Positions 1,372-38,839 of a stretch of DNA of 39,868 nt are shown here, piece by piece (the stretch's first letter is position 1; every line of letters begins with the position of its first letter). The notes below the pieces were generated by a model that did no database searches, was not told the origin of the DNA, and saw nothing but the letters and a program-made list of their open reading frames with translations. The translations under genes and the position numbers were made by a program. Source of the DNA: a virus (lineage: Duplodnaviria > Caudoviricetes); IMG/VR virus record IMGVR_UViG_3300025608_000041, positions 1 to 39,868 of that record. One strand, 5' to 3'.

Positions 1372-2331
1372 ATGTCTTTATTAGAAGAGTCAAAGGTTTA
1401 TAAACCATTCAAGTATCCGTGGGCTGTCGAGTACGCAGTTTCTCATGAGAAGGTTCACTGGGGAGAATGGGAGGCAAAACTGCAAGAGGATGTGGCACAG
1501 TGGCAGGGCGGCAAGCTCTCAGCGCAGGAGAAGCACCACATCACTCAGATACTCAAGTTGTTTACACAGTCTGACGTACAGGTTGGCACGAACTACCTCG
1601 AGTACTACATACCGAAATTTAAGAACAATGAGATACGTGCGATGCTCACGTCGTTCGCTAACCGTGAGTTTGTCCACCAGCGTTCTTACGCCCTGCTCAA
1701 TGACACCCTAGGGTTGCCTGAGACTGAGTTCTCTGCCTTCCTCGAGTACGAGTCTATGAAAAACAAGGTGGATTTCATGGGTGACATCGACATGAACTCC
1801 CACGCCGGGACTGCGATGGCGATTGCCCGTAGCGTCATGAACGAGGGTATGAGCCTGTTCAGTGCCTTCGCGATGCTCCTGAACTACCAACGGTACGGGA
1901 AGATGCGAGGCATGTGTGAGATTGTAGAGTGGTCTATCCGTGATGAGAGTATGCACTGTGAAGGAATGGTTAAGCTGTTTAGGGAATTCTGTGAAGAACA
2001 CCCCCGGATTGTTACGGATGAATTTAAGAAAAATATCTATGATATGTTCCGTACTAGCGTTGCACTTGAAGATAAAGTTATTGACAATGCGTTTGAGATG
2101 GGCACTGTGGAAGGTGTGTCGGCAGAGGAAATTAAGCAATATATCCGATATCTTGCGGACCGACGGCTCATTATGCTCGGGCTCAAGGGTAACTGGAAGG
2201 TTAAGGAGAACCCCCTCGAGTGGCTCGATTGGGTAATCAATGGGGCCAGCCATAAGAACTTCTTTGAGGGGACTGTGACGGACTACAACGCCGATGGGAT
2301 GGCAGGAGAATGGGGGTGGGCCGCCGCATGA
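1372..2331 (+). CDS. nrdB: Class I ribonucleotide reductase beta subunit
   Basis: Di-metal ligand motifs FTQSD, EFVHQRSY (includes the radical Tyr), NEG and RDESMH; C-terminal NFFE; RBS AAGGA. Confidence 0.97.
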   Translation: MSLLEESKVYKPFKYPWAVEYAVSHEKVHWGEWEAKLQEDVAQWQGGKLSAQEKHHITQILKLFTQSDVQVGTNYLEYYIPKFKNNEIRAMLTSFANREFVHQRSYALLNDTLGLPETEFSAFLEYESMKNKVDFMGDIDMNSHAGTAMAIARSVMNEGMSLFSAFAMLLNYQRYGKMRGMCEIVEWSIRDESMHCEGMVKLFREFCEEHPRIVTDEFKKNIYDMFRTSVALEDKVIDNAFEMGTVEGVSAEEIKQYIRYLADRRLIMLGLKGNWKVKENPLEWLDWVINGASHKNFFEGTVTDYNADGMAGEWGWAAA

Positions 2332-8969: not shown

Positions 8970-11102
8970 TTACTGTAGTTGAAGAATAGGGAAACGACGG
9001 GTCTCCCCGTTAATTACCCGTTCTACGTATTGTTCGCCAGAACCGAGAGGCCCTGTGTAGCCTATAGTACCCCTACCCTCAAAAACTTGCGGAGCCCCAG
9101 ATCGTGCTTCTGCGTAGTTCTTAGGAGCCATACCGCCCATTGCTTGGTCATATAGGAAGACGGCCTCAAACTCTGCGTCATCTACTGCGTTGGCGTACCC
9201 ATTGTGGATTGCGTAGGTAGAACTCATCTGATCTTCTAGGTAGTCTAAGTTAGCCATAACCCCGGGGGTGTAGACGCTAAATCCAGTAAGGCCGAGCTTC
9301 TCTCTCTGGAACTGTACGTCTTGGTTAGAGATATCACGTCCCTGTGCGCCACCCTGAAGGGCCGCGGCTTGGTAATACGCTAGAGTTTCACCGAGGAGAT
9401 CGAACACATATTGTAGTCGTGCTGAATCACTAATTTCTGGGTTCTGCTCAATATCTGCCAGACCTTTCTGTATTCCGGATAAGGCCTCTTGGTTTTTCTC
9501 CCCAGATATTTGGGTAACTAGGACGTTGAAATCTTGGACAAGTTCGCCCAATCCGGCAAGCGTCTTTTTAACTTGAGACACTTTACCCGCACCGACCATT
9601 CCACTAGCCATCAGGTCCTTCATCTGAAGGATTACTGTCTTTGCTTTCTTAGAGGCGTAAGCACGTGCGCGGGCATCTTCTCGGCTGATGCCATACATAT
9701 CCCTGAATTTTTTATTATAAACGGCCTTAGTCTGCCCCTGCGATATTTCTACAGCAGTGACCTTACGGGGGCTATCATCTCGGGTAAATAGGCGGGCTAC
9801 TTCGATACCGTCTTGAGGCTCTAAGTTTTTAACGAGCTTGTACAGTCTATCGTTTGCCGCGGGGTTAATTTGAATCGCCCCGCTATTTTGTCTCGTGATT
9901 AAAGGTTTCACAACCGTCTGGGTATTTACGATTGCAGATAGTAGTTTTTCCGGCTCTTTTGCCCGGGACACTGTCTCGAGAATACGTATTGCAGACGCAC
10001 CACTAGCGGCTCGAATTTTAGTCACTTTATCCCAGATTTCTGGGCGAATTTGCTGAGAGTTTGAGCGGTCGGGATCAAAGTTAGGACTACCCATACCGAC
10101 GTACTCCGTGGCCCAGTTATAAGAATCCTCAGAAGCCCCTACAAACTGGTCATTAACCTCATCATACGTGAGAGGTAGTTGCTTAGGATACCCAATCGCT
10201 TCTTTTAAAGCGTCGGTAGTGACCCCGAGCTGAGGACCAATGATATTGTCAATCCACCACTCTTGCGTCTTCCTGTCTACTTGACCGTTCTTTGTGAGCA
10301 TCTCTAAAGCAGGGAATGCCGTCACAGGGTTTTGTATGTACTGGGTTCCCGCCTCATCCTTATTTAACAGAAGATTTGAGCGGATAGCTTTCTTGTCAAT
10401 ATTCTGTACTAACTGGGTACGCACCTCTTTCAACAACCCATGTGGGTCCCCGTTCTCAATGTGCCACCACAGTTCTGTGCCGATGCCGTCAGCAACATTA
10501 TAAATCTTCTGATTAACTCTGGCGATATCACTTTTGTGATACTTAACGTCTACTCCGGGAACGTACAGCGTATTCCCGGACTTACTTTTGAAGTTGAACA
10601 TGGGGAGGTCAGTATCGACACCAGCCATCGGGATAGCCCCCGTCAATTTACCCGATTCTTCCTGCGCGTTGTCGTAACCGTATACTGTCCACCCAGCAGG
10701 GGCAACAAAGGACTTCCCCTCTTCCGCGGCTTTGTTGGCTTTTATAGTTAAGTTGTCAATTTTGCTTAGAAGGTCGTCTCGTTTTTTTTGATCAGTAACT
10801 TGCTTTAGTTCTTCTTCATACGCTCGTATAGCCATAGCATTGCCTTGCTCTCTAACCATTCGATCTATTGCGTATTCATTCTCTGTCTCCGCTCTAAACT
10901 TTACGATATCTTTATCTAATCCATACTTGAGCATGGTTTGCGCTTGGTCGTATTTAAAGTTTTCTTGCGCTTGGAAGGCGTAGAGCTCTTTCTGGCGTTC
11001 AAACTCTTTTTCTGAAGCTATCTGCTCTGCCTCTGCCCGCTTAGCCTCAGTAAACGCTTGCGCGGCACCGCCGATAAAACCTAGTGTGAAAATGCCAGCC
11101 AT
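8970..11102 (-). CDS. Putative internal virion (ejection) protein
   Basis: 710 aa; N-terminal hydrophobic/Gly segment (GIFTLGFIGGAAQAF) followed by coiled coil. Confidence 0.65.
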   Translation of the reverse strand: MAGIFTLGFIGGAAQAFTEAKRAEAEQIASEKEFERQKELYAFQAQENFKYDQAQTMLKYGLDKDIVKFRAETENEYAIDRMVREQGNAMAIRAYEEELKQVTDQKKRDDLLSKIDNLTIKANKAAEEGKSFVAPAGWTVYGYDNAQEESGKLTGAIPMAGVDTDLPMFNFKSKSGNTLYVPGVDVKYHKSDIARVNQKIYNVADGIGTELWWHIENGDPHGLLKEVRTQLVQNIDKKAIRSNLLLNKDEAGTQYIQNPVTAFPALEMLTKNGQVDRKTQEWWIDNIIGPQLGVTTDALKEAIGYPKQLPLTYDEVNDQFVGASEDSYNWATEYVGMGSPNFDPDRSNSQQIRPEIWDKVTKIRAASGASAIRILETVSRAKEPEKLLSAIVNTQTVVKPLITRQNSGAIQINPAANDRLYKLVKNLEPQDGIEVARLFTRDDSPRKVTAVEISQGQTKAVYNKKFRDMYGISREDARARAYASKKAKTVILQMKDLMASGMVGAGKVSQVKKTLAGLGELVQDFNVLVTQISGEKNQEALSGIQKGLADIEQNPEISDSARLQYVFDLLGETLAYYQAAALQGGAQGRDISNQDVQFQREKLGLTGFSVYTPGVMANLDYLEDQMSSTYAIHNGYANAVDDAEFEAVFLYDQAMGGMAPKNYAEARSGAPQVFEGRGTIGYTGPLGSGEQYVERVINGETRRFPILQLQ

Positions 11103-11707
11103 TATTTCTCTTCCTCTTCCATAGTATCCGCGTCAATGCCGGGTGCTTCTTCCGCCGGTGGTGTTGGCATATCAGCTAGGAAACTCTGCTGTCTTGCGGC
11201 CGCAGTCTCTCTTTGGACTTTGTCGTTAACCTCGGGACGCTTCATCATGTACGCGGCAAACTCGGGGTTCCGGTCTTTCATGATGTTAAGAAGTTGCGCG
11301 TCTTCCATACCGTAGTTAGTGCGCGGCAGACCGTCTTTTGTGTTGAATACTTTTGCAGGTATTTGATACTCTGCCGCTAGCCCCATGAGGTAAAACGCGA
11401 GAGGTGCCTTAATTAGTTCTGCAACATCGACCGTAAATCTACCCTCAGTAAACCCCACCTTGGTCATTGTAGATACGAGCTCTTCGACAGATACCCCTGC
11501 GGCAAGTAGTTGAACGTATTGCTCCTCGACTTCTGGTTTTTCGAGATTGTCGATGATAGCGTCCACAGCTTCCCCCGGAGATGTGTGCTCAGGCGGGCCT
11601 TCCCACGGCCATTTTTTAGGGCTTCCCGTGAGAGAGAATCCGGGAGGTGCTTTATTAAAGCGACTTTCCGGTGTGAGTGTTTGTTTACGTCTCATTGGCC
11701 GTTGCAT
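11102..11707 (-). CDS. Conserved-looking virion-associated protein
   Basis: 201 aa with a PPGFSLT...PWEGPP motif; sits among the internal protein genes. Confidence 0.7.
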   Translation of the reverse strand: MQRPMRRKQTLTPESRFNKAPPGFSLTGSPKKWPWEGPPEHTSPGEAVDAIIDNLEKPEVEEQYVQLLAAGVSVEELVSTMTKVGFTEGRFTVDVAELIKAPLAFYLMGLAAEYQIPAKVFNTKDGLPRTNYGMEDAQLLNIMKDRNPEFAAYMMKRPEVNDKVQRETAAARQQSFLADMPTPPAEEAPGIDADTMEEEEK

Positions 11708-26573: not shown

Positions 26574-27002
26574 TTAGACCCACTCCCCTGTAGCCATCGC
26601 TTGACAGAGACGCTCAGCCCGACGACCTACTTGTCTAGCCCACTTTGAATCCATCATTTGGTCTGCGGCTTCTTCCCAGTCCTCGTCTTCGATGGCATCC
26701 CACATTTTCTGGAACTTCATCAGGGTTGGGATGCCTAGATTGAAACCCATGTCAACAAGCACACGCTGACGAACAGAATCAAGTCCAGCCACTTCGGGTT
26801 TTCTCTCAAGAAGTTCATCTTCAACGATCATGATATCTGTCTGTAGCAAATACCGCGCTTCGTCTTCCGTGATGCCACGCTCTTCAATGTTTCGACCTAC
26901 ACCGATAGTTAGCTTGTCTGCTGTACAACGGTATGGTTTCAACTCCAACCCTTCGTGGTCGATGAGTTGATCTTCGAGGTCTTTAAGGGTGTATTTCATC
27001 AT
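26574..27002 (-). CDS. Lysozyme/endolysin, GH24 (T4-lysozyme-like)
   Basis: HEGLELKPYRCTADKLTIGVGRN (E-x8-C-x5-T), MGFNLG, SKWARQVGRRA. Confidence 0.92.
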   Translation of the reverse strand: MMKYTLKDLEDQLIDHEGLELKPYRCTADKLTIGVGRNIEERGITEDEARYLLQTDIMIVEDELLERKPEVAGLDSVRQRVLVDMGFNLGIPTLMKFQKMWDAIEDEDWEEAADQMMDSKWARQVGRRAERLCQAMATGEWV

Positions 27003-27003
27003 G

Positions 27004-27261
27004 TTAGCAATTCCACTTCTTGCGTGACCAGTAGTTGGCTGAGAATTTATCGTCCGTTCCTTTGATTCCGGAAGAACGAGCGCAGTAGGATTTCTTGTTG
27101 GCTTTCTGATCTTTCTTGATGCTCATATCAGGATCACCAAACCGGACCAGCTTAACTTTGTCTCCCTTCTTTGCAAGTACTGCAAACTTCTTCGGACCAT
27201 TGGGAGTTCTCTTCGGTTTGTTGTAACCGGAAAACTTCTCACCCCGATATTCAACCGCCAC
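27004..27261 (-). CDS. Small basic conserved-type phage protein
   Basis: Probable GTG start at 27261 after GGAG: MAVEYRGEKFSGYNKPKRTP...KKFAVLAK...VRFGD...SYCARS...SANYWSRKKW. Confidence 0.75.
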   Translation of the reverse strand: MAVEYRGEKFSGYNKPKRTPNGPKKFAVLAKKGDKVKLVRFGDPDMSIKKDQKANKKSYCARSSGIKGTDDKFSANYWSRKKWNC

Positions 27262-27544
27262 GTGCTTTACTCCATCGTTGTGTATAGCCACCCATTGCGG
27301 CACGATGTCTTGCTGTCTTCTCCGCAATCTTCTTGGGTTGCTTTACGTGTTGTTTCCCGGATGCTTTTCCGGCTCGCTTTGCTCGGGTAGTTGCGGCGTA
27401 TTCTTGGGAAGAGAGGGATTCTCTTGCACTCTTGGGGAGGTACCTTTCACCGGTCGCTTCCGAACCCTGTGTCGATGGCTTGCCACTTTTCGTTCCCCAG
27501 TCTTCTTTAGTCCAGTTTTTTAGGGACTTCTGAGGGGCCTTCAT
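27251..27544 (-). CDS. Small basic protein (resembles C-half of DUF5872-like proteins)
   Basis: Start ATG 27544 overlaps the upstream stop (ATGA). QKSLKNWTKEDWGTKSGK...GERYLPK...GKQHVKQP. Family name recalled from memory. Confidence 0.75.
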   Translation of the reverse strand: MKAPQKSLKNWTKEDWGTKSGKPSTQGSEATGERYLPKSARESLSSQEYAATTRAKRAGKASGKQHVKQPKKIAEKTARHRAAMGGYTQRWSKARGG

Positions 27545-27783
27545 GATGTGTAGCCACCGCCAGCATCTTTGTATTGCTTCGCTACCATCTGGGCTTTGCG
27601 GGCTGACCACTGTCCGGGTGCTCCGCCTTTCCCTCCGGCTTTGACTTTGTTAAAGATTCGTTTTCGCATACCCGGCTTGGTGTAGTTGCCGGCCTCATTG
27701 ACACGGCTCTCTCCTCCACTCGCCATACGAGCTCTTGACCACCGTTCTGTGTAACCACCCATCTTCTTTTTATCATACGCCAT
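27541..27783 (-). CDS. Small basic protein (resembles N-half of DUF5872-like proteins)
   Basis: NYTKPGMRKRIF...KGGAPGQWSARKAQMVAKQYKDAGGGY. Family name recalled from memory. Confidence 0.75.
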   Translation of the reverse strand: MAYDKKKMGGYTERWSRARMASGGESRVNEAGNYTKPGMRKRIFNKVKAGGKGGAPGQWSARKAQMVAKQYKDAGGGYTS

Positions 27784-29900: not shown

Positions 29901-31556
29901 TTACGTCGTACTTGACGCGATACCACCTCCAGCCATCGTCATCCCTTCCGAAGGGTTAGTTGGCTGTGGAGGAGGTTGTTGAACTTCTTGATCTTGTTGA
30001 GGCTCAGCCTGTTGCTGGCGTTTCTCAACTTCTTTCTTTCCGCGATTGTTAATTTTATTTAAGCGGTCGTAGCCGATAATTTCAGCTAAGAGTTTGGGGA
30101 CAACTACTTCACCTTTTGATACGAGTAAAGAAACAGTCTCCTCCCTTGATATTTTATTGTCGCCTGTTGAAATGTCAATACCCTGTCTTTCAGCTTCTTG
30201 CATTGCGTTCAGAATCATTTTTTTGATGTCATCCGACCCCGCGAATTCAACAGCAGAAGCATTCAGGATAAAGGTACCTTCTTCGACGTCCATAGGTACG
30301 TCATCCGCTACTGTATCTTCAGGAGCTACCTGTTCGGGAGGAGCACCTACAAATCCCACGGGACCATTCAGGGCTTCGCCGCCCTGTTGCATTGGAGTAG
30401 GTAGATTTAACTTTCCACTTGCAACATCCATGATTTTTTTATTGTATGCATACACAGCACTCAAATCGTCTGCGGTTTTTGCTACACTAGGATCAATGAA
30501 GAAAGAATCCGGATTGCCCTTTACTTCTTCGGCCTGTCCCGCAAGATCAACAACGTCAGGGATGTCGACTGTAATGTTCTTAGCCACTCCCCCGTTCATC
30601 ATACGCTGAACTTCACCCCCTTCCGCCATTTCAGATACGGGTGTACCAAAAGTTGGTTGAATGTAAGGGGTTGCAAATTCCGCCGGCTCAATAGGAGGTG
30701 TTTCAGCCTGTCGTAAAAACGTGGAAAGAAAGATATTGTTGCGGCCTAGGGCTTTTGCGATAGCTTGAGTTTTTGGATTATTGCTGTCATCTCTATTCAC
30801 GCCCCATACATTTGTCTTATCTTCAAATTCTTTCACGGACATTACCGCGCCCGTATCTGAAAAGACATTTTTTACGAACATGCTAGGTTCAGCTTTCTCG
30901 TCTACGATGTCTTTAACTAGTGCGGTATCAATAGACATGCCGGGGATAGGAGAAATCACAGATGCCATGAGGTTTCCTATACCGTCCATCATAGCTCGGT
31001 CGTCAATTGTCTGCCCAATAAAATTGGTCTGAGGATCAATTGTGAAGTCCAAGCCTCTAGGAGTGCCCATCCAATCGGCAACGAGGTTAGTAACTGTTCC
31101 AATAAACCCCTTACCCTTTTCGGAGTACCCGGGAATAACGGATAGGTCTTTCCCTAAAAATTCTCCGTATGTCTTGGCTTCTTCAATATCTACCCGCCGA
31201 GCACCCTCTGAGTAGCTTTCAGGTTGTTGGGTAATTCCGTAGTTTGGTCCATAGCCCCCGACACTGTAGCCGTATTTTGTCATGCCGGTACTCAGGCTGT
31301 AATCATCTACAGCGGGAGGGGAGAAGTAGTTGCGGCCGGAATCCCCCGTAGAGAAGTCCGAAATAGCTGAGGTACCATACGCCCCCATGCCTAAGTCACT
31401 GGCAAGTCCGGAGGAACCGTAGTTAGGGTCATACCCACCACCTGTGCCTCCGATTGAGACCCCTAAACCCCCCATATCAGAAGATGAAGTGGCTCCCACA
31501 TCTTCAGAAGCGGCAGTGTTTGATACTGAGTTGTCGGTGTCTTCGTCTGGTCTCAT
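29901..31556 (-). CDS. Putative virion protein with low-complexity N-terminus, MxxGG repeats and tape-measure-like GE(F/V)V modules
   Basis: G/S/Y/D-rich N-terminus; MAEGG, MMNGG, MQQGG and MAGGG; ADDVPMDVEEGTFILNASAV; VSKGEVVVP...IGYDRLNKINNRG. Confidence 0.75.
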   Translation of the reverse strand: MRPDEDTDNSVSNTAASEDVGATSSSDMGGLGVSIGGTGGGYDPNYGSSGLASDLGMGAYGTSAISDFSTGDSGRNYFSPPAVDDYSLSTGMTKYGYSVGGYGPNYGITQQPESYSEGARRVDIEEAKTYGEFLGKDLSVIPGYSEKGKGFIGTVTNLVADWMGTPRGLDFTIDPQTNFIGQTIDDRAMMDGIGNLMASVISPIPGMSIDTALVKDIVDEKAEPSMFVKNVFSDTGAVMSVKEFEDKTNVWGVNRDDSNNPKTQAIAKALGRNNIFLSTFLRQAETPPIEPAEFATPYIQPTFGTPVSEMAEGGEVQRMMNGGVAKNITVDIPDVVDLAGQAEEVKGNPDSFFIDPSVAKTADDLSAVYAYNKKIMDVASGKLNLPTPMQQGGEALNGPVGFVGAPPEQVAPEDTVADDVPMDVEEGTFILNASAVEFAGSDDIKKMILNAMQEAERQGIDISTGDNKISREETVSLLVSKGEVVVPKLLAEIIGYDRLNKINNRGKKEVEKRQQQAEPQQDQEVQQPPPQPTNPSEGMTMAGGGIASSTT

Positions 31557-31558
31557 TA

Positions 31559-31786
31559 TTATCTCTCAGCGTCTAGGACAGCTATGTGGTTATCCTTCAG
31601 GTGTAGGAGGGTTTCCAGTAAATCCAGCTTCCCCTGCAACCGGAACATTTCCCGTTCCGACTGTGCCGCCACCAACCCCCGAATTGTCAACTGGTGGAGG
31701 TCCATTAGGTACAGATTCAGGGCCTCCCATGCCTGCGGGTGGTTGACCAGCGGGCCCACCTTCTGGGCCTGTTCCTTGTTGAGCAT
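31559..31786 (-). CDS. Small conserved post-portal protein (overlaps the portal 3' end)
   Basis: 75 aa; RBS AAGGA; helical W...MFRLQGKLDLLETLL pattern typical of small genes following podovirus portals. Confidence 0.75.
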   Translation of the reverse strand: MLNKEQAQKVGPLVNHPQAWEALNLYLMDLHQLTIRGLVAAQSEREMFRLQGKLDLLETLLHLKDNHIAVLDAER

Positions 31787-33686
31787 TCTGGAGTCCTTGT
31801 AGTACTTTTGCGTAGAGTTGTGCTTCGTCTAAGTCATTGACGAGTTCATCAGGGTCAATGTCCTGTGAAATCGCAAGCTCTTTAACCAAGTTAGGTAGCT
31901 TAATAAACGGCGCAAGCATTGGGTTGGCGACCGTCTGCAACAAGGCGGTGAGTCGTTGAGTTCGTACCTCTTTCTGCATGACGGCAGAAGTCCCGCGAGG
32001 TTTAATGGACAAATCTCCGATAATATCGGGGGACTCGTCGTTGTACTGCATATTCCACTGGAAGTATGCCTCTCCGAGGGGTTTTAAGAGGAAGTCGTCA
32101 ATATTTTTGACCACCGTCTTGATTGATAGACTGCCCGAGCTCAGCATCATTGAAAGACCTGAGGCTGTACGGCCGGTGCCGCTAACTCCTGTCTGTCCGT
32201 GAAGCACCGAAGGGATACCCGTCTCTTCGTCAGCCAATTGACGTGAAATCTGGTACATCTGGATGTTCTCAGGTGCAGTATTAGGGAATTTAAGCCCGTT
32301 AATAGCCGTGCCTGTAACTCCCGATTGACGCCGGAAAACTTTCCCCGGGAAAATATCAAAGTTCTGCCCCGGTACGAGACTTGCCTCATCGACATCAAAC
32401 ACCAGATTGCCTGCCAAGGCTAGGTTGTCAATTGCCATACGAACGTGGCCGTTCATTAGCATCTGTGCGTCTTCCATGTTCTCCGCAACCCCGACACCCC
32501 ATAACTGGTATGGGTTTACTTCATATGGGAAAGCGTGAAATGGAATGCGGGCAGGCGTGAAAGGGTTCAAGACACATCGAAGAACTTCATTACCGCAAAT
32601 CCAAGCGTTAATTTGTACCTGATCGAGTTCGCCTACGGTAGCTGGCAAGTCTAGGCCAACTTCACGAGCGAAGTCAGCATCTAACACACCCCAGTACTCC
32701 AGAACCTCGTACCGATTTTCTTGGTAGTACGGCTCTGTATCATCCTCACGGATAGTATCTTCGTAATACTTATCTTCGTAGTTTGGCCCGCCTACAATTG
32801 TGTTCTCAATAGCAGTGGCGTCAAAATACGGGCGATTCATGAGGTTTCGCAATTGCTGGCGACTCATGCGGTGGCGTTGAATAACGTACTCACAGTCCTC
32901 GATGCTACTTGCTGAAGGATCAGGGTGGAAATCCCAACAAGACACGTGCTCTATCCTAGGTACTACCTTTTCGTCCGGGACGTACACACGCTCCCCATTC
33001 TCGTCCCGCTCCCACTTGTGGATTCGTTTGTAGAAATTAAAGGGGCCCTTTACGATGCCAGTACCGAGTAACGAGGACTCAAAAATTGCATTCCGCATCA
33101 CGTTGACAGCATTAGTATCTAAAAGCTGGTCGTGTATGTACTTTTCGAGGGCTCTAGCGGCTTCTTTAGCCGGTTCAAGTTGAGGTTCACCTAGATTAGA
33201 CGGACCTTCAGATATTTGGTCTGCCATTTCTTGGTACTTACCGAAGTTAAGTGCGGTAGCACCCGGCTCAAGTTCCATACCATCACCCGCATAGCCAAAC
33301 GGACTTTTGATCTCGTCTGCCGGGGTTGATACGTGTGCGAACTCCTCAATACCTTCCGGTACAGGAGAAGACTCGACAACGATAGGAAACTTCTTGTTTG
33401 CAAAAAGAATGTCGATAATCTGGCCGTAAGCGGCAAGGACCTTCGTCTTCGTAATTTTAATGAAGACTTTGGATCGCTCAGAATCTCGGTACTGGGTAGT
33501 CGAGTCGTAAATACCGCGGAAGTTTTTGTAAGCTTGAAGCCACTTCTGCTCAAAAGTTCTACGACCGTTTTCTGAGTCCTCGAACTTCGTCCTTACATAC
33601 CCGGCAAGACCCGGCATTTTATCTTTTGCGTTTTGAACCTCAACTTGCCCATCATCAGGAGCACTGAGGAAACCCTCTTGGGACAT
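31590..33686 (-). CDS. Portal (head-tail connector) protein
   Basis: 698 aa; RSKVFIKITKTKVLAAY, GTGIVKGP, WGVGVAENMEDAQ...DNLAL.GN, RTASGLSM. Confidence 0.92.
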   Translation of the reverse strand: MSQEGFLSAPDDGQVEVQNAKDKMPGLAGYVRTKFEDSENGRRTFEQKWLQAYKNFRGIYDSTTQYRDSERSKVFIKITKTKVLAAYGQIIDILFANKKFPIVVESSPVPEGIEEFAHVSTPADEIKSPFGYAGDGMELEPGATALNFGKYQEMADQISEGPSNLGEPQLEPAKEAARALEKYIHDQLLDTNAVNVMRNAIFESSLLGTGIVKGPFNFYKRIHKWERDENGERVYVPDEKVVPRIEHVSCWDFHPDPSASSIEDCEYVIQRHRMSRQQLRNLMNRPYFDATAIENTIVGGPNYEDKYYEDTIREDDTEPYYQENRYEVLEYWGVLDADFAREVGLDLPATVGELDQVQINAWICGNEVLRCVLNPFTPARIPFHAFPYEVNPYQLWGVGVAENMEDAQMLMNGHVRMAIDNLALAGNLVFDVDEASLVPGQNFDIFPGKVFRRQSGVTGTAINGLKFPNTAPENIQMYQISRQLADEETGIPSVLHGQTGVSGTGRTASGLSMMLSSGSLSIKTVVKNIDDFLLKPLGEAYFQWNMQYNDESPDIIGDLSIKPRGTSAVMQKEVRTQRLTALLQTVANPMLAPFIKLPNLVKELAISQDIDPDELVNDLDEAQLYAKVLQGLQNAQQGTGPEGGPAGQPPAGMGGPESVPNGPPPVDNSGVGGGTVGTGNVPVAGEAGFTGNPPTPEG

Positions 33687-33698
33687 GGTTACTTACCT

Positions 33699-33899
33699 TT
33701 ATACAGGTTGCTTGTCCGCATTAAGAATTGCGGAATCGAGAGGTGCTTTTTTACCTGAGTTAGGGGCACTTTCGATTAGTACGTCTGTTTTTGCTACAGT
33801 GTCGAAATCCATACTCTCACGGTATAGGTTGTTCTCGCCGCAGTTGTAGTCAACTCCTTTTTTATCGGAATTCATGATGTCAGAAGCACCATACTTCAT
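33699..33899 (-). CDS. Small hypothetical protein (66 aa)
   Basis: Start ATG 33899 with RBS GAGGAG, immediately after the upstream stop. Confidence 0.7.
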   Translation of the reverse strand: MKYGASDIMNSDKKGVDYNCGENNLYRESMDFDTVAKTDVLIESAPNSGKKAPLDSAILNADKQPV

Positions 33900-33900
33900 A

Positions 33901-35781
33901 CTATTTCTCCTCATTAGGATATGTAATTTCAATGTCAGGACGGATGCCCTGTAACTCACTCATTTGCTTGTCCAAAGGACGGGCTGGAGCACCTCGTTGG
34001 GCTAGTCCAGCTTTCATCTGTTGTAGTAGTTCTTTTTCTTTTCTTTCAACGAAGGGGTAACTCGGTTTTCCTGCGGCATCTGAAGGCACAATATCAGAAC
34101 CTTTACCTGCCTCTTGAGGGCGCATAAAAGCTAGCGGAGTAGGCTCTAACGCTTCGTAAGCCCCTGTAGCGGCTCCTGCGCCTATTGCGCGTAGGGTACT
34201 ACCACTTTCTTGCATTTCTTTTGCGTACGCGTCTCTTGAAGCCGTTACGACGCCTGTTATACCTAGTCCCGCGAGAGCAAACTTACCAAACCCCTTAAAA
34301 AAGTCAGACATGTCCTGTGCTTTTTTTGTTGTTTCTTCATCGAAGACTTTAGGAGCGGGCTTATCCTCATCTGAGATTTTTTTCTTAATCTCGTCTTTTA
34401 GTCGCTTCTCTTCTGCTTGACCGCGGAGGAACTTCTCCTGCAAGGCTAAGTACTCTGGAGATGTTTTTGTTTCCATCTCCTCGATCTCTGCTTGAAGCTT
34501 TTTGAGAGACTCCTCTTGAGCTACACGTCCTGCGCGTTCGACAGCGGCCTTAGCATTTGCTTTGATCTCTTCCTCAGTTTCAGTGGAAACTTGAACACGA
34601 GGAGCTTCGACTCCTCTTTCCATCGTGTCTTCAGAAAAGGTAAATGGAGTAATTGGTGTAGCTTGGCGGGTGTTGTTTAAAGCGGGAAGTTCAAAACCGT
34701 AAGATGCTATTTTCGCATCAATCGTAGTGTTGTTAGTTTTTGCGGCCGCATCACCTAGGAGATTTTCAACGAGGCTTCCGACTGCAACATTACCTGTTTT
34801 ACCTGCGTAGTTTCTATCTACGATCTCGGTCTCTGTGTGCCCCATAAATGCCTTACGCATATCTACGGGAACTCTGAACTCATCTTTCAACATACGAGGT
34901 AGAATGTGTCGGATGGCAGTAGGAGACGAGACTACTTTTTTTGTCTTGTTGTCTATCGGTAAACGATCCGCGTATCTTTCTTCGAGCACAGGACGTATCG
35001 TCGAGTTGAATGTGCTAGTAAACTTTTCTTTCGATACACTAAACAGCTTTTCTCCGGGTTTTGCCCCGGCAGTTTTACGACTATCGGCTTGTTGTGCGAT
35101 TAAATCAGCGAGAGGGCCCGTTAAAACGACTTGCGGACGATTCTTTTTTGGGTTACCGTACATAGCGACGGTGACTTTTTTAGCACCGTCTTCGGAAGTC
35201 GTAACACTAATATCGGAGAGCTTAATGCCATTTTCCCCTACTAAGTGCTCAATACGAGTACCCGTGTATCGGTGGTACAATAAAGCCGCCCGAGTGTCTC
35301 CATCGGGTATCGTTTTTAATTTGTCGTCGTATATTTCTTCGAGCTCAGCATTCGTAATTAGGCCCCTCATAGGCCGTTCGCCAACTAGACCTGTACGCTG
35401 GGTACCCCCGAGGCCAAGTTTGTCTGCTCTGTTACCCGCACCTGCTAATACGGGGTATAGTGCCCGCTTTTCAGGGGGAAACTCTGCCGCTTCGATAGCT
35501 TGCTGTAAGGGTAACTCTAATGAACTTAAATTGCCGAACCTGTTAGATTCATCAGGTGCAAATTCAGGATTAAATAACTCGAGGGTAGTGGAGTTACGAA
35601 GATCGACGTAGGGCATGTCTACATCGAGGCCCATAGTCTTGAAACCAGACTGGAGAGCACTAATTTTCTTTTTAGCATTTGCGGATACGCCCGGACGAGA
35701 AAGTCCGTAGTCTATGACGTCACGTACAGTGAGAGACTGGTCAGCCGCCTTACTAATAAGTTCTTCGTAACTTAATGCCAT
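33901..35781 (-). CDS. Tyrosine recombinase/integrase-fold protein with long C-terminal extension
   Basis: YTGTRIEHL...IKLSDI (box I Arg), PKKNR (Lys), SPTAIRH (box II Arg; usual His replaced by Thr), FMGH...RNY (His, Tyr). About 290 further aa include a coiled coil and hydrophobic segments. Confidence 0.8.
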   Translation of the reverse strand: MALSYEELISKAADQSLTVRDVIDYGLSRPGVSANAKKKISALQSGFKTMGLDVDMPYVDLRNSTTLELFNPEFAPDESNRFGNLSSLELPLQQAIEAAEFPPEKRALYPVLAGAGNRADKLGLGGTQRTGLVGERPMRGLITNAELEEIYDDKLKTIPDGDTRAALLYHRYTGTRIEHLVGENGIKLSDISVTTSEDGAKKVTVAMYGNPKKNRPQVVLTGPLADLIAQQADSRKTAGAKPGEKLFSVSKEKFTSTFNSTIRPVLEERYADRLPIDNKTKKVVSSPTAIRHILPRMLKDEFRVPVDMRKAFMGHTETEIVDRNYAGKTGNVAVGSLVENLLGDAAAKTNNTTIDAKIASYGFELPALNNTRQATPITPFTFSEDTMERGVEAPRVQVSTETEEEIKANAKAAVERAGRVAQEESLKKLQAEIEEMETKTSPEYLALQEKFLRGQAEEKRLKDEIKKKISDEDKPAPKVFDEETTKKAQDMSDFFKGFGKFALAGLGITGVVTASRDAYAKEMQESGSTLRAIGAGAATGAYEALEPTPLAFMRPQEAGKGSDIVPSDAAGKPSYPFVERKEKELLQQMKAGLAQRGAPARPLDKQMSELQGIRPDIEITYPNEEK

Positions 35782-37494
35782 TTAGTATCCGAATGTTGAA
35801 TCTTGAGGCTGGAATGTGCTAGTCTTAATATCGTTCAAAGATTTTTGGATGGAGACATAGCCTGATGTGCGAGTCATCAACATATAACGTAGTGCGTCAT
35901 ATGCGTGATCTTCAGCTTTTGTATCGACATCTTCAGAATTTGACTTCGACAGTGGTATACCAGCTAGTTGTTTTATTGTGTTTGTACAGGTATTGAATAT
36001 TTTTAGAGTTGGTTCTCTCGTAAACTCGTTATCACCGAGACGGCGATGAATCTCCATTTTACCCTGAACACGAGCACGGTCGGAGGGTGTCCAACGACAT
36101 CCCATCCGTATCATGGTTTCAGCGATTGAGGGTCCGTAACCAGTACGGTTCCAACACGAAGAGTCGAGCACAGCATAGTGTGGAGTAGGATCGTACTCCT
36201 CCATCTCTAATATTTTAGCGGCCAATTGCTCTGCTGTAAAGTGTTTTACGTAAAGTTCCCTGTAAACCCATATGTTGTTGTCCCAATCGATTGCACCCCA
36301 GAGTACACACGAAGGGCTCGCATAACCGTAGTCAGCCGCACGGATACGGGGCCAATTGGTCGGTAATTCGTAAGGATCGACAACGTGCTTAAACTTGTTA
36401 AACTCGGGGAATGCACACCCCTCTGCGACATCCCAGTCTCCATCGAGGAGTCTTTTTCTCTCAGTTTCGGGGAGAGAGAGTAGCATGGCTTCGTACTGTC
36501 CGTCGGCCATGAGGAAGGGATTATCCGTGAGACGGGCCGGGACGAACTTACGCCAGTAGAGAGGTTTGCCGGCTTTAGCGTGACCATCGGGATAAACTAG
36601 CTGTTTCTCAGACTCGAGATCAGTCGGTACAAACGACTTACCGGGTTCTCCTTGGTCGATGTACATTTTCTTGACCCACCAGCCACCAACGCCGCCCGGG
36701 TTGGCAGTACATCGCATGGAGAGATTGGCAGAGAGCTCGGGGTCGGTTGACCGGAGACGAGAACGGAGATACTCCCAGACGTAAGGCGTAGGGTATTGTG
36801 TAACTTCGTCAATTGCGATCCAGTTAAAGGCTTGCCCCTGATATCGTGTAACATCTTTGTCTTTATCCAAGTACGAGAACCAGATAGTGGCCCCCGACGG
36901 AAAGACCCACGTAGACTTACTCTCGCGGAATACGGCACCGGGGAATGCTTTCGGGTAGAGTTGTTTTGATTTACTTATGAGTTCCGTTAACTCATCGAGA
37001 GTACGACGTAATAGAAGACCCCGGTGATTACCATTATGGCAATAACGTAGAGGATCAGCCAGTAGAGCAAAAGATTTTCCTCCTCCAGCCGCACCACCAT
37101 AGAGTACGTCCTGTTCAGGAGCCGAGAGAAACTCTTCCTGAGGTCCAGCATTGGGCTTAAATACAACTTCAGACTCGCCAACGAGTTCTCGAACTGCTTT
37201 CGGTAGTACATTCACGTCTCCTTGGTCGATTACACGTGACTTTTCACCCTTTAGGGCTGTTTCTACCTTCGAGGCGGCTTTAATTCTCTGGTTTGCTCGT
37301 TGATTTTGCTTCTGAGCGGCCGCTTTTTTACGTGCGGCCTCTTTTTTTGACCTAGTTATCGACGCTTGAGTTGCTCGACGGGCTTTTTCAGCCGTGGAGA
37401 GATGATAACGGCTTTTGGGTGCATTCGGGTCTTTTTTTGGGCGTCCGCGCTTCCGCTTTGGGGCGGGCGCGGCCGTGGTATCGTCGCTACTCAC
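35782..37494 (-). CDS. terL: Terminase large subunit
   Basis: Walker A GGAAGGGKS, Walker B IAIDE, coupling motif TANP, nuclease AADYG...DH..DALRY; GTG start. Confidence 0.95.
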   Translation of the reverse strand: MSSDDTTAAPAPKRKRGRPKKDPNAPKSRYHLSTAEKARRATQASITRSKKEAARKKAAAQKQNQRANQRIKAASKVETALKGEKSRVIDQGDVNVLPKAVRELVGESEVVFKPNAGPQEEFLSAPEQDVLYGGAAGGGKSFALLADPLRYCHNGNHRGLLLRRTLDELTELISKSKQLYPKAFPGAVFRESKSTWVFPSGATIWFSYLDKDKDVTRYQGQAFNWIAIDEVTQYPTPYVWEYLRSRLRSTDPELSANLSMRCTANPGGVGGWWVKKMYIDQGEPGKSFVPTDLESEKQLVYPDGHAKAGKPLYWRKFVPARLTDNPFLMADGQYEAMLLSLPETERKRLLDGDWDVAEGCAFPEFNKFKHVVDPYELPTNWPRIRAADYGYASPSCVLWGAIDWDNNIWVYRELYVKHFTAEQLAAKILEMEEYDPTPHYAVLDSSCWNRTGYGPSIAETMIRMGCRWTPSDRARVQGKMEIHRRLGDNEFTREPTLKIFNTCTNTIKQLAGIPLSKSNSEDVDTKAEDHAYDALRYMLMTRTSGYVSIQKSLNDIKTSTFQPQDSTFGY

Positions 37495-37894
37495 CGTGTT
37501 CTATGACCATCTCTTTCTTCGGCGGGAGTAATACCACGCCATGAATTGCGGTGACGTTATGATTGATGGTATCCTGCTTACCGAGTCCGACTCTGTTGAG
37601 GAGGGATTCAGCGGCTTGGAGGCGTATGTTATCTCCACGCTCAATTTCAGGTGCGTCGATAGTGGCAACCAGCTTATTTGCCGCCTTAATTGCACCCCCT
37701 GCGAGGATACTCCGTGATCTTTCGATGATTTCATCCGCGAGACTTTCCTTTAGGTAGCCTATTGATCCTTGAGAGTACCCGGATACTTCGCAGGCACGGC
37801 TAAAATTGCCGTTATTTTCAAAGAGTGCCTCGAGAAAACCCTTCTGCTTATCGGAGAGTTCTCTTTTCTTCTGTTGTTGGGGAAGGAGATTCAT
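37487..37894 (-). CDS. terS: Terminase small subunit
   Basis: LSDKQKGFLEALF..GN...ACEVSGYS helix-turn-helix, AAESLLNRVGLGK, VVLLPPK; directly upstream of terL. Confidence 0.85.
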   Translation of the reverse strand: MNLLPQQQKKRELSDKQKGFLEALFENNGNFSRACEVSGYSQGSIGYLKESLADEIIERSRSILAGGAIKAANKLVATIDAPEIERGDNIRLQAAESLLNRVGLGKQDTINHNVTAIHGVVLLPPKKEMVIEHGE

Positions 37895-37975: not shown

Positions 37976-38099
37976 AGTTTTTCCTCGATAGGGAGATAAA
38001 AAAGGGGTGTTTCCACGTGTGGTTGTGAGACTCTTACGTTTAAAAGGGTTTTACAAGATTAAGTCGCTTCTCCGTACCACGTTGTTTCAACACAAGTTC

Positions 38100-38129
38100 A
38101 TTATGGGGGGCGGTAAAAAAGTTTGTCAA
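38100..38129 (-). promoter_or_regulatory. Sigma70-type promoter for the packaging/late operon
   Basis: TTGACA (38129-38124), 18 nt spacer, CATAAT (38105-38100); AT tract upstream. Confidence 0.7.
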
Positions 38130-38156
38130 TATAAAAAAAATATATTTCGCACCCTC

Positions 38157-38185
38157 TTGACGGGAGTATTTCTGGACAGTACAAT
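38157..38185 (+). promoter_or_regulatory. Sigma70-type promoter, divergent
   Basis: TTGACG (38157-38162), 17 nt spacer, TACAAT (38180-38185); A-tract (UP-element-like) at 38129-38147. Confidence 0.8.
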
Positions 38186-38191
38186 GGGATT

Positions 38192-38295
38192 GTAAGCCCG
38201 CGGGGGTAAACCCATATATTCTTCCCCGGTATCCCCAGCTTACCGCCTACCACCCGAGCCCTCGACAGTACCCCCTGCTGTCGGGGGTTTTTTTT
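38192..38295 (+). ncRNA. Candidate ~100-nt small RNA
   Basis: Bounded by a near-consensus promoter and a strong terminator; no ATG-initiated ORF; 5' stem GTAAGC/GCTTAC. Confidence 0.6.
38258..38295 (+). terminator. Rho-independent terminator
   Basis: GCCCTCGACAGTA-CCCCC-TGCTGTCGGGGGT followed by a T-run. Confidence 0.85.
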
Positions 38296-38308
38296 GGTTC
38301 CCCCGGTA

Positions 38309-38367
38309 CCCCGGTACCCCCGACGGTAAGCCGGCTGGCTCCCCGTTACCCCCAACGGTAAGCCGGC
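38309..38367. repeat. 27-bp direct repeat x2 (32-bp period), with a degenerate third copy at 38766-38788
   Basis: CCCCGGTACCCCCGACGGTAAGCCGGC (38309-38335) vs CCCCGTTACCCCCAACGGTAAGCCGGC (38341-38367), 25/27 identical. Confidence 0.85.
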
Positions 38368-38368
38368 A

Positions 38369-38390
38369 TGTGAAACACTCTGTGAAACAC
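38369..38390. repeat. 10-bp direct repeat TGTGAAACAC x2
   Basis: Copies at 38369-38378 and 38381-38390. Confidence 0.75.
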
Positions 38391-38793
38391 ACCCTAAAAT
38401 CCACAAAATTATGGGGAGATTGCTAGTGCTATACCCCTACCCCCCCGTGGCCCTAGCCCGCGCCCTCATTGGGGTCCATATTTTTATCCTCGGTGAAGCT
38501 CACCATACAGGCTCCCTAGGGTTTTCCTCGAGACCTAACCCTTAGCGTTCTTTTCCCCTTCCCTATTGGCGACACCATACGAAATTAGGTGGACCCTTTG
38601 ACGAAACATTCTGGGCAAACCCAGTGCAATACCGGTGGGATGTTCAAAAAGTAGACTGTCGGTCGGGGATTCTATAACCCCCACTGGACACCCCGAAAAA
38701 ACCCCAACACCAACAGCGGCAAGACCTCAGGTATTTTTCTGGGTTATCGGCAGTCAACCGGCGGACACCCCAAAGGTAGGCCGGCATGGGGAC

Positions 38794-38817
38794 AAAAAAA
38801 AGGGCCCCGAAGGGCCC
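38794..38817 (-). terminator. Terminator of the right-hand - strand gene block
   Basis: GGGCCC-TTCG-GGGCCC followed by T8. Confidence 0.9.
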
Positions 38818-38839
38818 GAAGAGGGAATGCTTTAGGGCC

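Follow-up and report, generated by a model that had tools for sequence, protein, structure and literature searches.

A tyrosine recombinase with a separately exchanged C-terminal tail in a polymorphic slot between terL and portal of uncultured marine phages

We found that a 626-aa protein encoded at positions 33901..35781 (minus strand) of a 39,868-nt viral DNA stretch, here called the window, is by fold and catalytic residues a member of the tyrosine recombinase superfamily (Int/Xer/Cre), carrying a C-terminal tail and representing core type A of a polymorphic slot between the terL and portal genes. The fold, the conserved catalytic residues, purifying selection, the fixed place in the head operon and the exchange of both cores and tails could be demonstrated from sequences together with structure models. 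With regard to function, we see close to an even chance that the protein is a head-packaged site-specific recombinase injected with the genome, much as a retroviral integrase is, and that it forms a polymorphic cassette with a swappable core and a separately swappable loading tail, rearranging phage or host DNA before phage gene expression, with a C-terminal motif serving as head-loading signal. A lineage of uncultured marine phages with an HMO-2011-type head module carries a recombinase at an unexpected place, missed by Pfam and PHROG in the query. As judged by titles and abstract openings of the open-licence literature, no virion-borne or terminase/portal-linked tyrosine recombinase has been described, and a recombinase role at infection would have no counterpart there.

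Fold and catalytic residues of the recombinase core

The query protein matched no Pfam and no PHROG family, and sequence searches of the PDB gave nothing useful, with SSV1 integrase appearing only at E 1.5. No homolog in a cultured phage was found by tblastn. Exhaustive searching gave 77 representatives matching the recombinase at E<=0.001, and PF00589 was matched by 13 of 64 family members at E<=0.05 (best 2.1e-7). Those 64 rows, being the query and 63 near full-length matches with fragments excluded, were used for assigning the catalytic residues by alignment. The residues (all minus strand) were R176 in a TGTR motif (35254-35256), K213 (35143-35145), R291 in a TAIRH motif (34909-34911), and H315 (34837-34839) with Y325 (34807-34809) in an MGH-x9-Y motif. 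R176, F247, R291 and Y325 were invariant in all 64 rows, K213 was kept in 63 and H315 in 57, with R in four and Q in three, so that the catalytic set read from the sequence in the initial annotation was borne out. The first His of HxxR is replaced by T288 (34918-34920, minus strand, within TAIRH); the commonest residues at that position among the 64 rows were S (34), K (9), T (8) and A (4), with no His in the 38 rows examined. This His-to-Thr change, previously held to set the protein apart from canonical integrases, is hence real but not diagnostic: CRP-3 is a proven integrator, and its integrase also lacks this His (reading LRDLRR).

The AF2 model had a mean pLDDT of 83, mostly >90 across residues 1-310, and resembled Int/Xer/Cre structures over residues ~16-350. 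Its comparison by Foldseek with integrases, Cre, TopIB and protelomerases, proposed at the outset, returned the Int/Xer/Cre fold, matching lambda Int, XerH and Cre (best E 1.0e-3), and the viral matches were integrases, 13 of them at E<=0.001 and with Mx8 Int at rank 3. Using VIA-align, XerA (4a8e) aligned over residues 16-358 with Z 12.1 and rmsd 7.7 for 244 residues. Residues 1-135 (35377..35781, minus strand) form a predicted core-binding (CB/SAM-like) helical domain with no arm-binding domain ahead of it, aligning in the model from residue ~16 to XerA, lambda Int and Cre, and residues 136-350 (34732..35376, minus strand) constitute the catalytic domain as judged by alignment and structure match. 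The combined CB+CAT fold was like that of XerA, Tn1549 Int and Cre, and the Atlas features of the protein scored 0.97-0.98 to integrase clusters. According to the model, residues ~1-350 are a predicted complete arm-less recombinase, more than a catalytic fragment.

Compared with the arm-less recombinases (XerA 4a8e, XerH, Cre, the Tn1549 Int core and lambda Int 75-356), the query has the same predicted CB+CAT fold and R-K-R-H-Y residues, whereas it is 12-20% identical to them, has the first HxxR His replaced, carries a helical tail of ~290 aa and is found in a head operon with polymorphic cores and with no site found in scans. It also has its catalytic-domain fold in common with type IB topoisomerases and protelomerases; the TopIB matches were confined to the catalytic domain, and the protelomerase TelA came at Foldseek rank 50 (E 0.055). 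We do not class the protein as a lysogeny integrase, Cre, TopIB or protelomerase.

Gene order and exchange of cores in the slot

The ATG of the recombinase gene directly follows the TAA of terL (terminase large subunit, 35782..37494, minus strand) with a gap of 0, as the initial annotation had described for the 626-aa frame. One base past the recombinase stop begins a 66-aa frame (33699..33899, minus strand), a conserved small gene that is always immediately downstream of the recombinase, with the portal gene at 31590..33686 (minus strand). A probable small terminase subunit gene, terS, was seen at 37487..37894 (minus strand; phrog_51, E 0.005), in the position of annotated terS in relatives. 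The small gene was considered as a dedicated recombinase partner and rejected as such, as HTVC033P gp78/gp79 match its profile and HTVC033P has no recombinase. Contigs from four other runs crossed the recombinase frame with few substitutions, showing that it is no assembly artefact, and contigs from RNA libraries of two studies extended to the 3' end of the gene, being silent on level, strand and timing. A contig of run X2 (window position 34376) had part of the tail-coding region in common and then continued into unrelated sequence, possibly being another allele with a different tail end.

The head module was that of an HMO-2011-type podovirus, with capsid and portal nearest to those of HTVC033P, HTVC115P, the CRP phages, HMO-2011 and phiM6. 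Between terL and portal, no recombinase gene was present in the four cultured relatives inspected (HTVC033P, HTVC115P, HMO-2011 and phiM6), nor in CRP-9. In a TerL tree with fragments <420 aa excluded and with long outgroup branches, the 33 recombinase-bearing rows made up one clade, separate from the four cultured phages (99/97). A complete relative, G001, encodes primase, helicase, DNA polymerase, a Cas4-like nuclease, an endonuclease, MazG and RNR. Qin et al. described the HMO-2011-type subgroups IV-X as having no identifiable lysogeny genes, and in their rows for subgroup X the gene numbers of terL and portal mostly differ by three, hypothetical proteins filling the interval (PMC9038755), which may be the same recombinase arrangement.

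Among 49 viral loci, many of them near-duplicates, terL was directly upstream of the recombinase in 46 of 46 informative cases, and the gene immediately after the recombinase was the 66-aa one in 44 of 44. Twenty-four further metagenome loci, from which the record of the window was excluded and which include several duplicates of viral loci, had terL upstream in 22 of 22 informative cases, and the recombinase was between phage genes in all 24. As a less circular test of the slot, we used the 30 longest-looking of 80 contigs found via a 201-aa gene of the head module; terL was present in 12 of these, and the slot was filled in 11 of the 11 having a visible post-terL gene, always by a 555-755-aa protein. 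No empty allele was hence seen in these 11 informative genomes, and no decayed copies were found except for one contig that was probably mis-sequenced. Scanning 35 records (8 at >=90% complete) with PF00589 gave no match outside the slot, and no second integrase was found in them. Whether homologs are always located between terL and portal had been asked in the initial annotation; in these loci they were, never in a lysogeny or early module, and by position this supports the earlier view that the protein is no ordinary lysogeny integrase. The early integrase CRP-3 gp02 of HMO-2011-type subgroups I/III, although from the same phage group by head module, differs from the query in being 357 aa, in lying upstream of replication genes and in having no tail and no significant similarity.

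The slot holds at least five core types that are 12-24% identical and are interchanged among phages having 95-96% identical TerL. The catalytic domains of six of the 11 slot proteins, together with one more, were 14-21% identical to that of the query, with the Arg, Arg and Tyr motifs of the divergent proteins (types B-E) recognised by eye. Clustering of 100 slot proteins by core gave groups of 89, 3, 3, 3, 1 and 1, and profile comparison linked type A strongly to E (97.8%) and C (93.9%) and weakly to B and D. In three pairs of loci (L031/L167, L040/L163 and L169/L159), cores were 16-22% identical despite TerL identities of 95-96%, and L041 and L045/L164 had divergent cores with TerL being 98-99% identical over a 150-aa fragment. 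DNA similarity ended at the terL stop and returned at the small gene or within the last ~250 nt of the tail, so that the swap breakpoints were at gene ends with no co-swapped flank. Types B and C sit in separate TerL subclades, and the types are scattered on the TerL tree. Crude dN/dS was lower in the core (0.105 over 90 pairs and 0.023 over 8) than in the tail (0.41 and 0.34), indicating that selection within a type is strongly purifying on the core and less so on the tail.

Tail modules, neighbouring genes and presumed virion loading

The tail, as modelled, starts with predicted long helices or coiled coil at residues 401-471 (34369..34581; helices from residue 403 in the AF2 prediction), followed by amphipathic Gly/Ala-rich helices at residues 482-545 (34147..34338), common to proteins with unrelated recombinase cores, and then by a C-terminal segment at residues 546-626 (33904..34146), all on the minus strand. 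It had no clear transmembrane segment, as the maximal Kyte-Doolittle 19-mer value was 1.31, with 1.6 reached in 3 of 37 tails. Of the coiled coil and amphipathic/hydrophobic segments described initially, the helices and the amphipathic character were borne out by the model. Searching the tail with Pfam, PHROG and Atlas revealed neither MuF nor any other known delivery domain, and Atlas gave no usable match.

The query tail was 32-47% identical to that of six proteins without a BLAST match in the core, so that tails move independently of cores; among 100 proteins, 32 tail pairs crossed core clusters. Some slot recombinases also have an N-terminal extension of ~120 aa (L163:1667-1284(-), L168:10930-10547(-), L005, L012 and L167), and one such extension of 128 aa was 92% identical between one type B and one type A protein, making it a third swappable module.

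About half of the homologs' C-terminal segments end with an acidic-[GSNT]F[LIVM] motif. This motif was originally noticed by eye, and when it was counted with one frameshift-like tail excluded, it was within the last 25 aa in 33 of 65 non-redundant tails, in the next window in 10 of 65 and beyond -50 in 0-3 of 65. The query does not have this end, having instead a motif of the D-K-Q-M-S-E-L type, which ends 10 of the 65 tails and is found also in the 1679-aa protein of the window. The latter belongs to a presumed ejection-protein cluster (146/201/710/1679 aa) that in sizes recalls T7 gp13-gp16. The 201-aa member (11102..11707, minus strand) belongs to a family having the C-terminal motif in common with recombinase tails: in a separately fetched set, the motif ended 28 of 30 of its homologs, compared with 8 of 195 other proteins, and among presumed ejection proteins it was seen in 0 of 45 for the largest and 6 of 45 for the second largest. 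A matrix trained on the 201-aa family only recognised 11 of 69 recombinase C-termini, 2 of 20 members of the post-portal family and 3 of 397 controls, with 0.8 in shuffled sequences. The 201-aa gene was found in 24 cultured records and belongs to the core genes throughout the HMO-2011/CHOED/phiM6 head-module group. Residues 40-120 of its product are confidently predicted as a helical core, and an acidic-SFL motif is conserved at the C-terminus; no solved fold matched its predicted fold (best Z 5.6), and by gene position alone it is presumed to be a virion protein.

Beyond the portal gene, a second hypervariable slot encodes a 551-aa protein (29901..31556, minus strand) that is a probable virion cargo. 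In relatives (those examined including L005, L015, L033, L034 and L161) the slot proteins were 668-1235 aa with several [FYM]xxGG motifs, and 4 of 22 scanned post-portal proteins had peptidoglycan hydrolase domains, these being Hydrolase_2 in three and the lysozyme-like PF16754 in one. Because of the shared C-terminal motif and this cargo-like neighbour, we consider it somewhat more probable than otherwise, judging from sequence patterns, that the recombinase is loaded into the virion. The ejection-protein-like tail suggested initially finds indirect support in the motif common to tails and the 201-aa family, and is weakened by the query itself not carrying that motif. If delivered by the virion, this would be a tailed-phage recombinase acting ahead of gene expression, and the slot would offer several new recombinase specificities as well as a short candidate capsid-loading tag.

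DNA target and competing explanations

The non-coding DNA ahead of terS has a conserved element at 38411..38461 (minus strand), ~520-570 nt from that gene and inside the 37976-38830 region proposed initially as a test substrate. Because the element was also found in HTVC033P, a relative without the recombinase, it was rejected as a recombinase-specific site. Similar sequence lies ~60 nt from the predicted pac end of phiM6 (PMC6256558), with the likeness judged by eye, and the element is a probable pac/terminus element. A scan of the gene, the region upstream of it and six genomes, which degenerate sites would escape, gave no family-wide lox-like palindrome with 11-13-bp arms and a 6-8-bp spacer, and neither a tRNA-type att core nor a dif-like site was found (24 XerD-arm-like sequences seen compared with 17.6 expected). 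Scans for repeats, promoters, tRNA and Rfam families likewise turned up neither a site nor an RNA linked to the recombinase gene. A peak of synonymous conservation at codons 136-156 in one group (0.86, with mean 0.60 and sd 0.08) was discarded since a second group did not show it. In the first group only, an imperfect palindrome (10 of 13 pairs) recurred at codon ~236; it is absent from the query, shows no compensatory change by eye and is a weak lead. Since the flanks do not move along when a gene is swapped as a whole, a cis site specific to one type and located elsewhere in the genome is disfavoured, and the target would then be intragenic, of loose definition or part of foreign DNA.

The reading we favour, although at well below an even chance, is that of a likely virion-loaded and active simple recombinase that would join redundant genome ends on entry. 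A predicted arm-less tyrosine recombinase with conserved catalytic residues would likely be produced late, as suggested by its operon position, would likely enter the head via its tail and would likely be delivered with the phage DNA, whereupon the redundant ends would be joined Cre-style ahead of phage gene expression. The likeness to P1 Cre/loxP is in the proposed circularising of a terminally redundant genome, the arm-less enzyme and a gene near the packaging origin; P1 Cre is expressed after entry and its site is a palindrome of 34 bp, whereas the query has a cargo-like tail and a palindrome of the lox kind was not found. The substrate is the most speculative part of the circularisation reading. 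Swaps of the whole gene are compatible with site-specific action only where the site moves along with it or the specificity of the enzyme is relaxed, and an intragenic site would be ~2.7-4.6 kb from the presumed pac element and thus possibly within the headful redundancy. Having the same head module, phiM6 is predicted to be of pac type and terminally redundant, its pac end being placed ~600 nt ahead of terS (PMC6256558), and MQM1 is reported to have predicted direct repeats of 327 bp (PMC10410586); with repeats of the MQM1 type, the recombinase gene would lie outside them. Counted against circularisation are also the lack of a lox-like palindrome conserved across the family in the scan above, the query's lack of the shared motif, its near absence from the largest presumed ejection proteins and the cultured relatives that manage without the gene, and circularisation alone leaves the exchange of at least five deeply divergent cores unexplained.

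That exchange would be accounted for by a virion-delivered polymorphic conflict effector, nicking, inverting or excising non-self DNA such as host loci, defence islands or co-infecting phages, with cores swapped as targets or host surveillance change. The variable core with separately exchanged tail and N-terminal extension, the breakpoints at gene ends with no co-swapped flank and the second hypervariable slot beyond the portal gene all fit such a role. The MuF/portal-linked polyvalent virion effectors, as described in their survey (PMC5512222), provide a precedent, having likewise a variable enzyme domain in a head gene cluster and being presumed packaged and injected; they differ in that the searches of the query tail gave neither MuF nor any other known delivery domain. 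The words recombinase and integrase are absent from the main text of that survey (PMC5512222), and the core is under strong purifying selection within a type. We consider this role unlikely, placing it second to circularisation.

Rather unlikely is an enzyme coupled to packaging, a resolvase or type IB topoisomerase-like protein that would be anchored through its tail at the portal, the procapsid or the terminase and would relax or resolve concatemers late without being ejected. Its stop-start coupling to terL would suit this, the catalytic domain matches TopIB 2b9s (Z 10.8, rmsd 2.9, 150 residues), and relaxed specificity would render cores interchangeable. However, a full CB domain is predicted, as in site-specific recombinases, endonuclease and Cas4-like nuclease genes are already present in related genomes, and a housekeeping role predicts TerL-like conservation, whereas catalytic-domain identity is 14-36% where TerL identity is 84-91%.

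A cryptic integrase, made late or carried in the virion and having attP inside its own gene, would make a phage group regarded as lytic temperate. The SSV1 and Mx8 integrases have attP inside their own genes and integrase cassettes are commonly exchanged; an internal attP would move with the gene, and the integrases among the Foldseek viral matches, Mx8 Int included, point the same way. Other HMO-2011-type phages are reported to integrate, CRP-3 doing so at tRNA-Met (PMC6918029). We nevertheless consider an integrase quite unlikely here, with tRNA T-arms in 46 genes being at the expected level (3 seen compared with 2.95 expected), no prophage copy or relative in two pattern scans of GTDB genomes of limited sensitivity, the gene placed between phage genes in the 24 further metagenome loci, the scanned early ORFs of two near-complete genomes yielding an HTH protein of ~150 aa but no repressor of CI type, and a best BLAST E of 0.016 to the CRP-3 early integrase.

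A selfish homing-like cassette, cutting rival alleles at the terL-portal junction in co-infection, would agree with whole-gene replacement, breakpoints at gene ends and types scattered on the TerL tree, yet is improbable, as there was no empty allele in the 11 informative genomes, no decayed copy save the one doubtful contig, and no explanation for the conserved tail organisation. Least credible is a non-catalytic DNA-binding protein with a recombinase fold, an MrpR/SroF-like repressor or genome-coating protein, for although MrpR is reported to have that fold without recombinase activity (PMC10516654) and SroF 9rd5 was a weak structural match (Z 7.2), R176, K213, R291 and Y325 are kept in 63-64 of 64 rows, divergent cores included.

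Some further features were seen in these genomes. The non-coding region upstream of terS has GC-rich direct repeats (27 nt, 93% identical, 32-nt spacing) at window 38224-38367 and a strong hairpin at 38256-38290, and length variants of the region occurred in other runs. The G001 contig (L056, L058, L059) carries ~6.5 kb of tail-fibre genes at both ends in variant copies, probably an assembly overlap of a circularly permuted ~55-kb genome. A class I ribonucleotide reductase small subunit is encoded at window 1372-2331 (plus strand), G001 having a single 642-aa RNR of another PHROG family. A tRNA-Cys gene was located amid early genes at L165:15875-15948 (minus strand), with none in the other 21 stretches scanned. 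Small basic ORFs of 80, 107 and 119 aa adjoin a lysozyme-like gene at window 26574-27783 (minus strand), the one of 107 aa matching short segments of larger head and methylase families.
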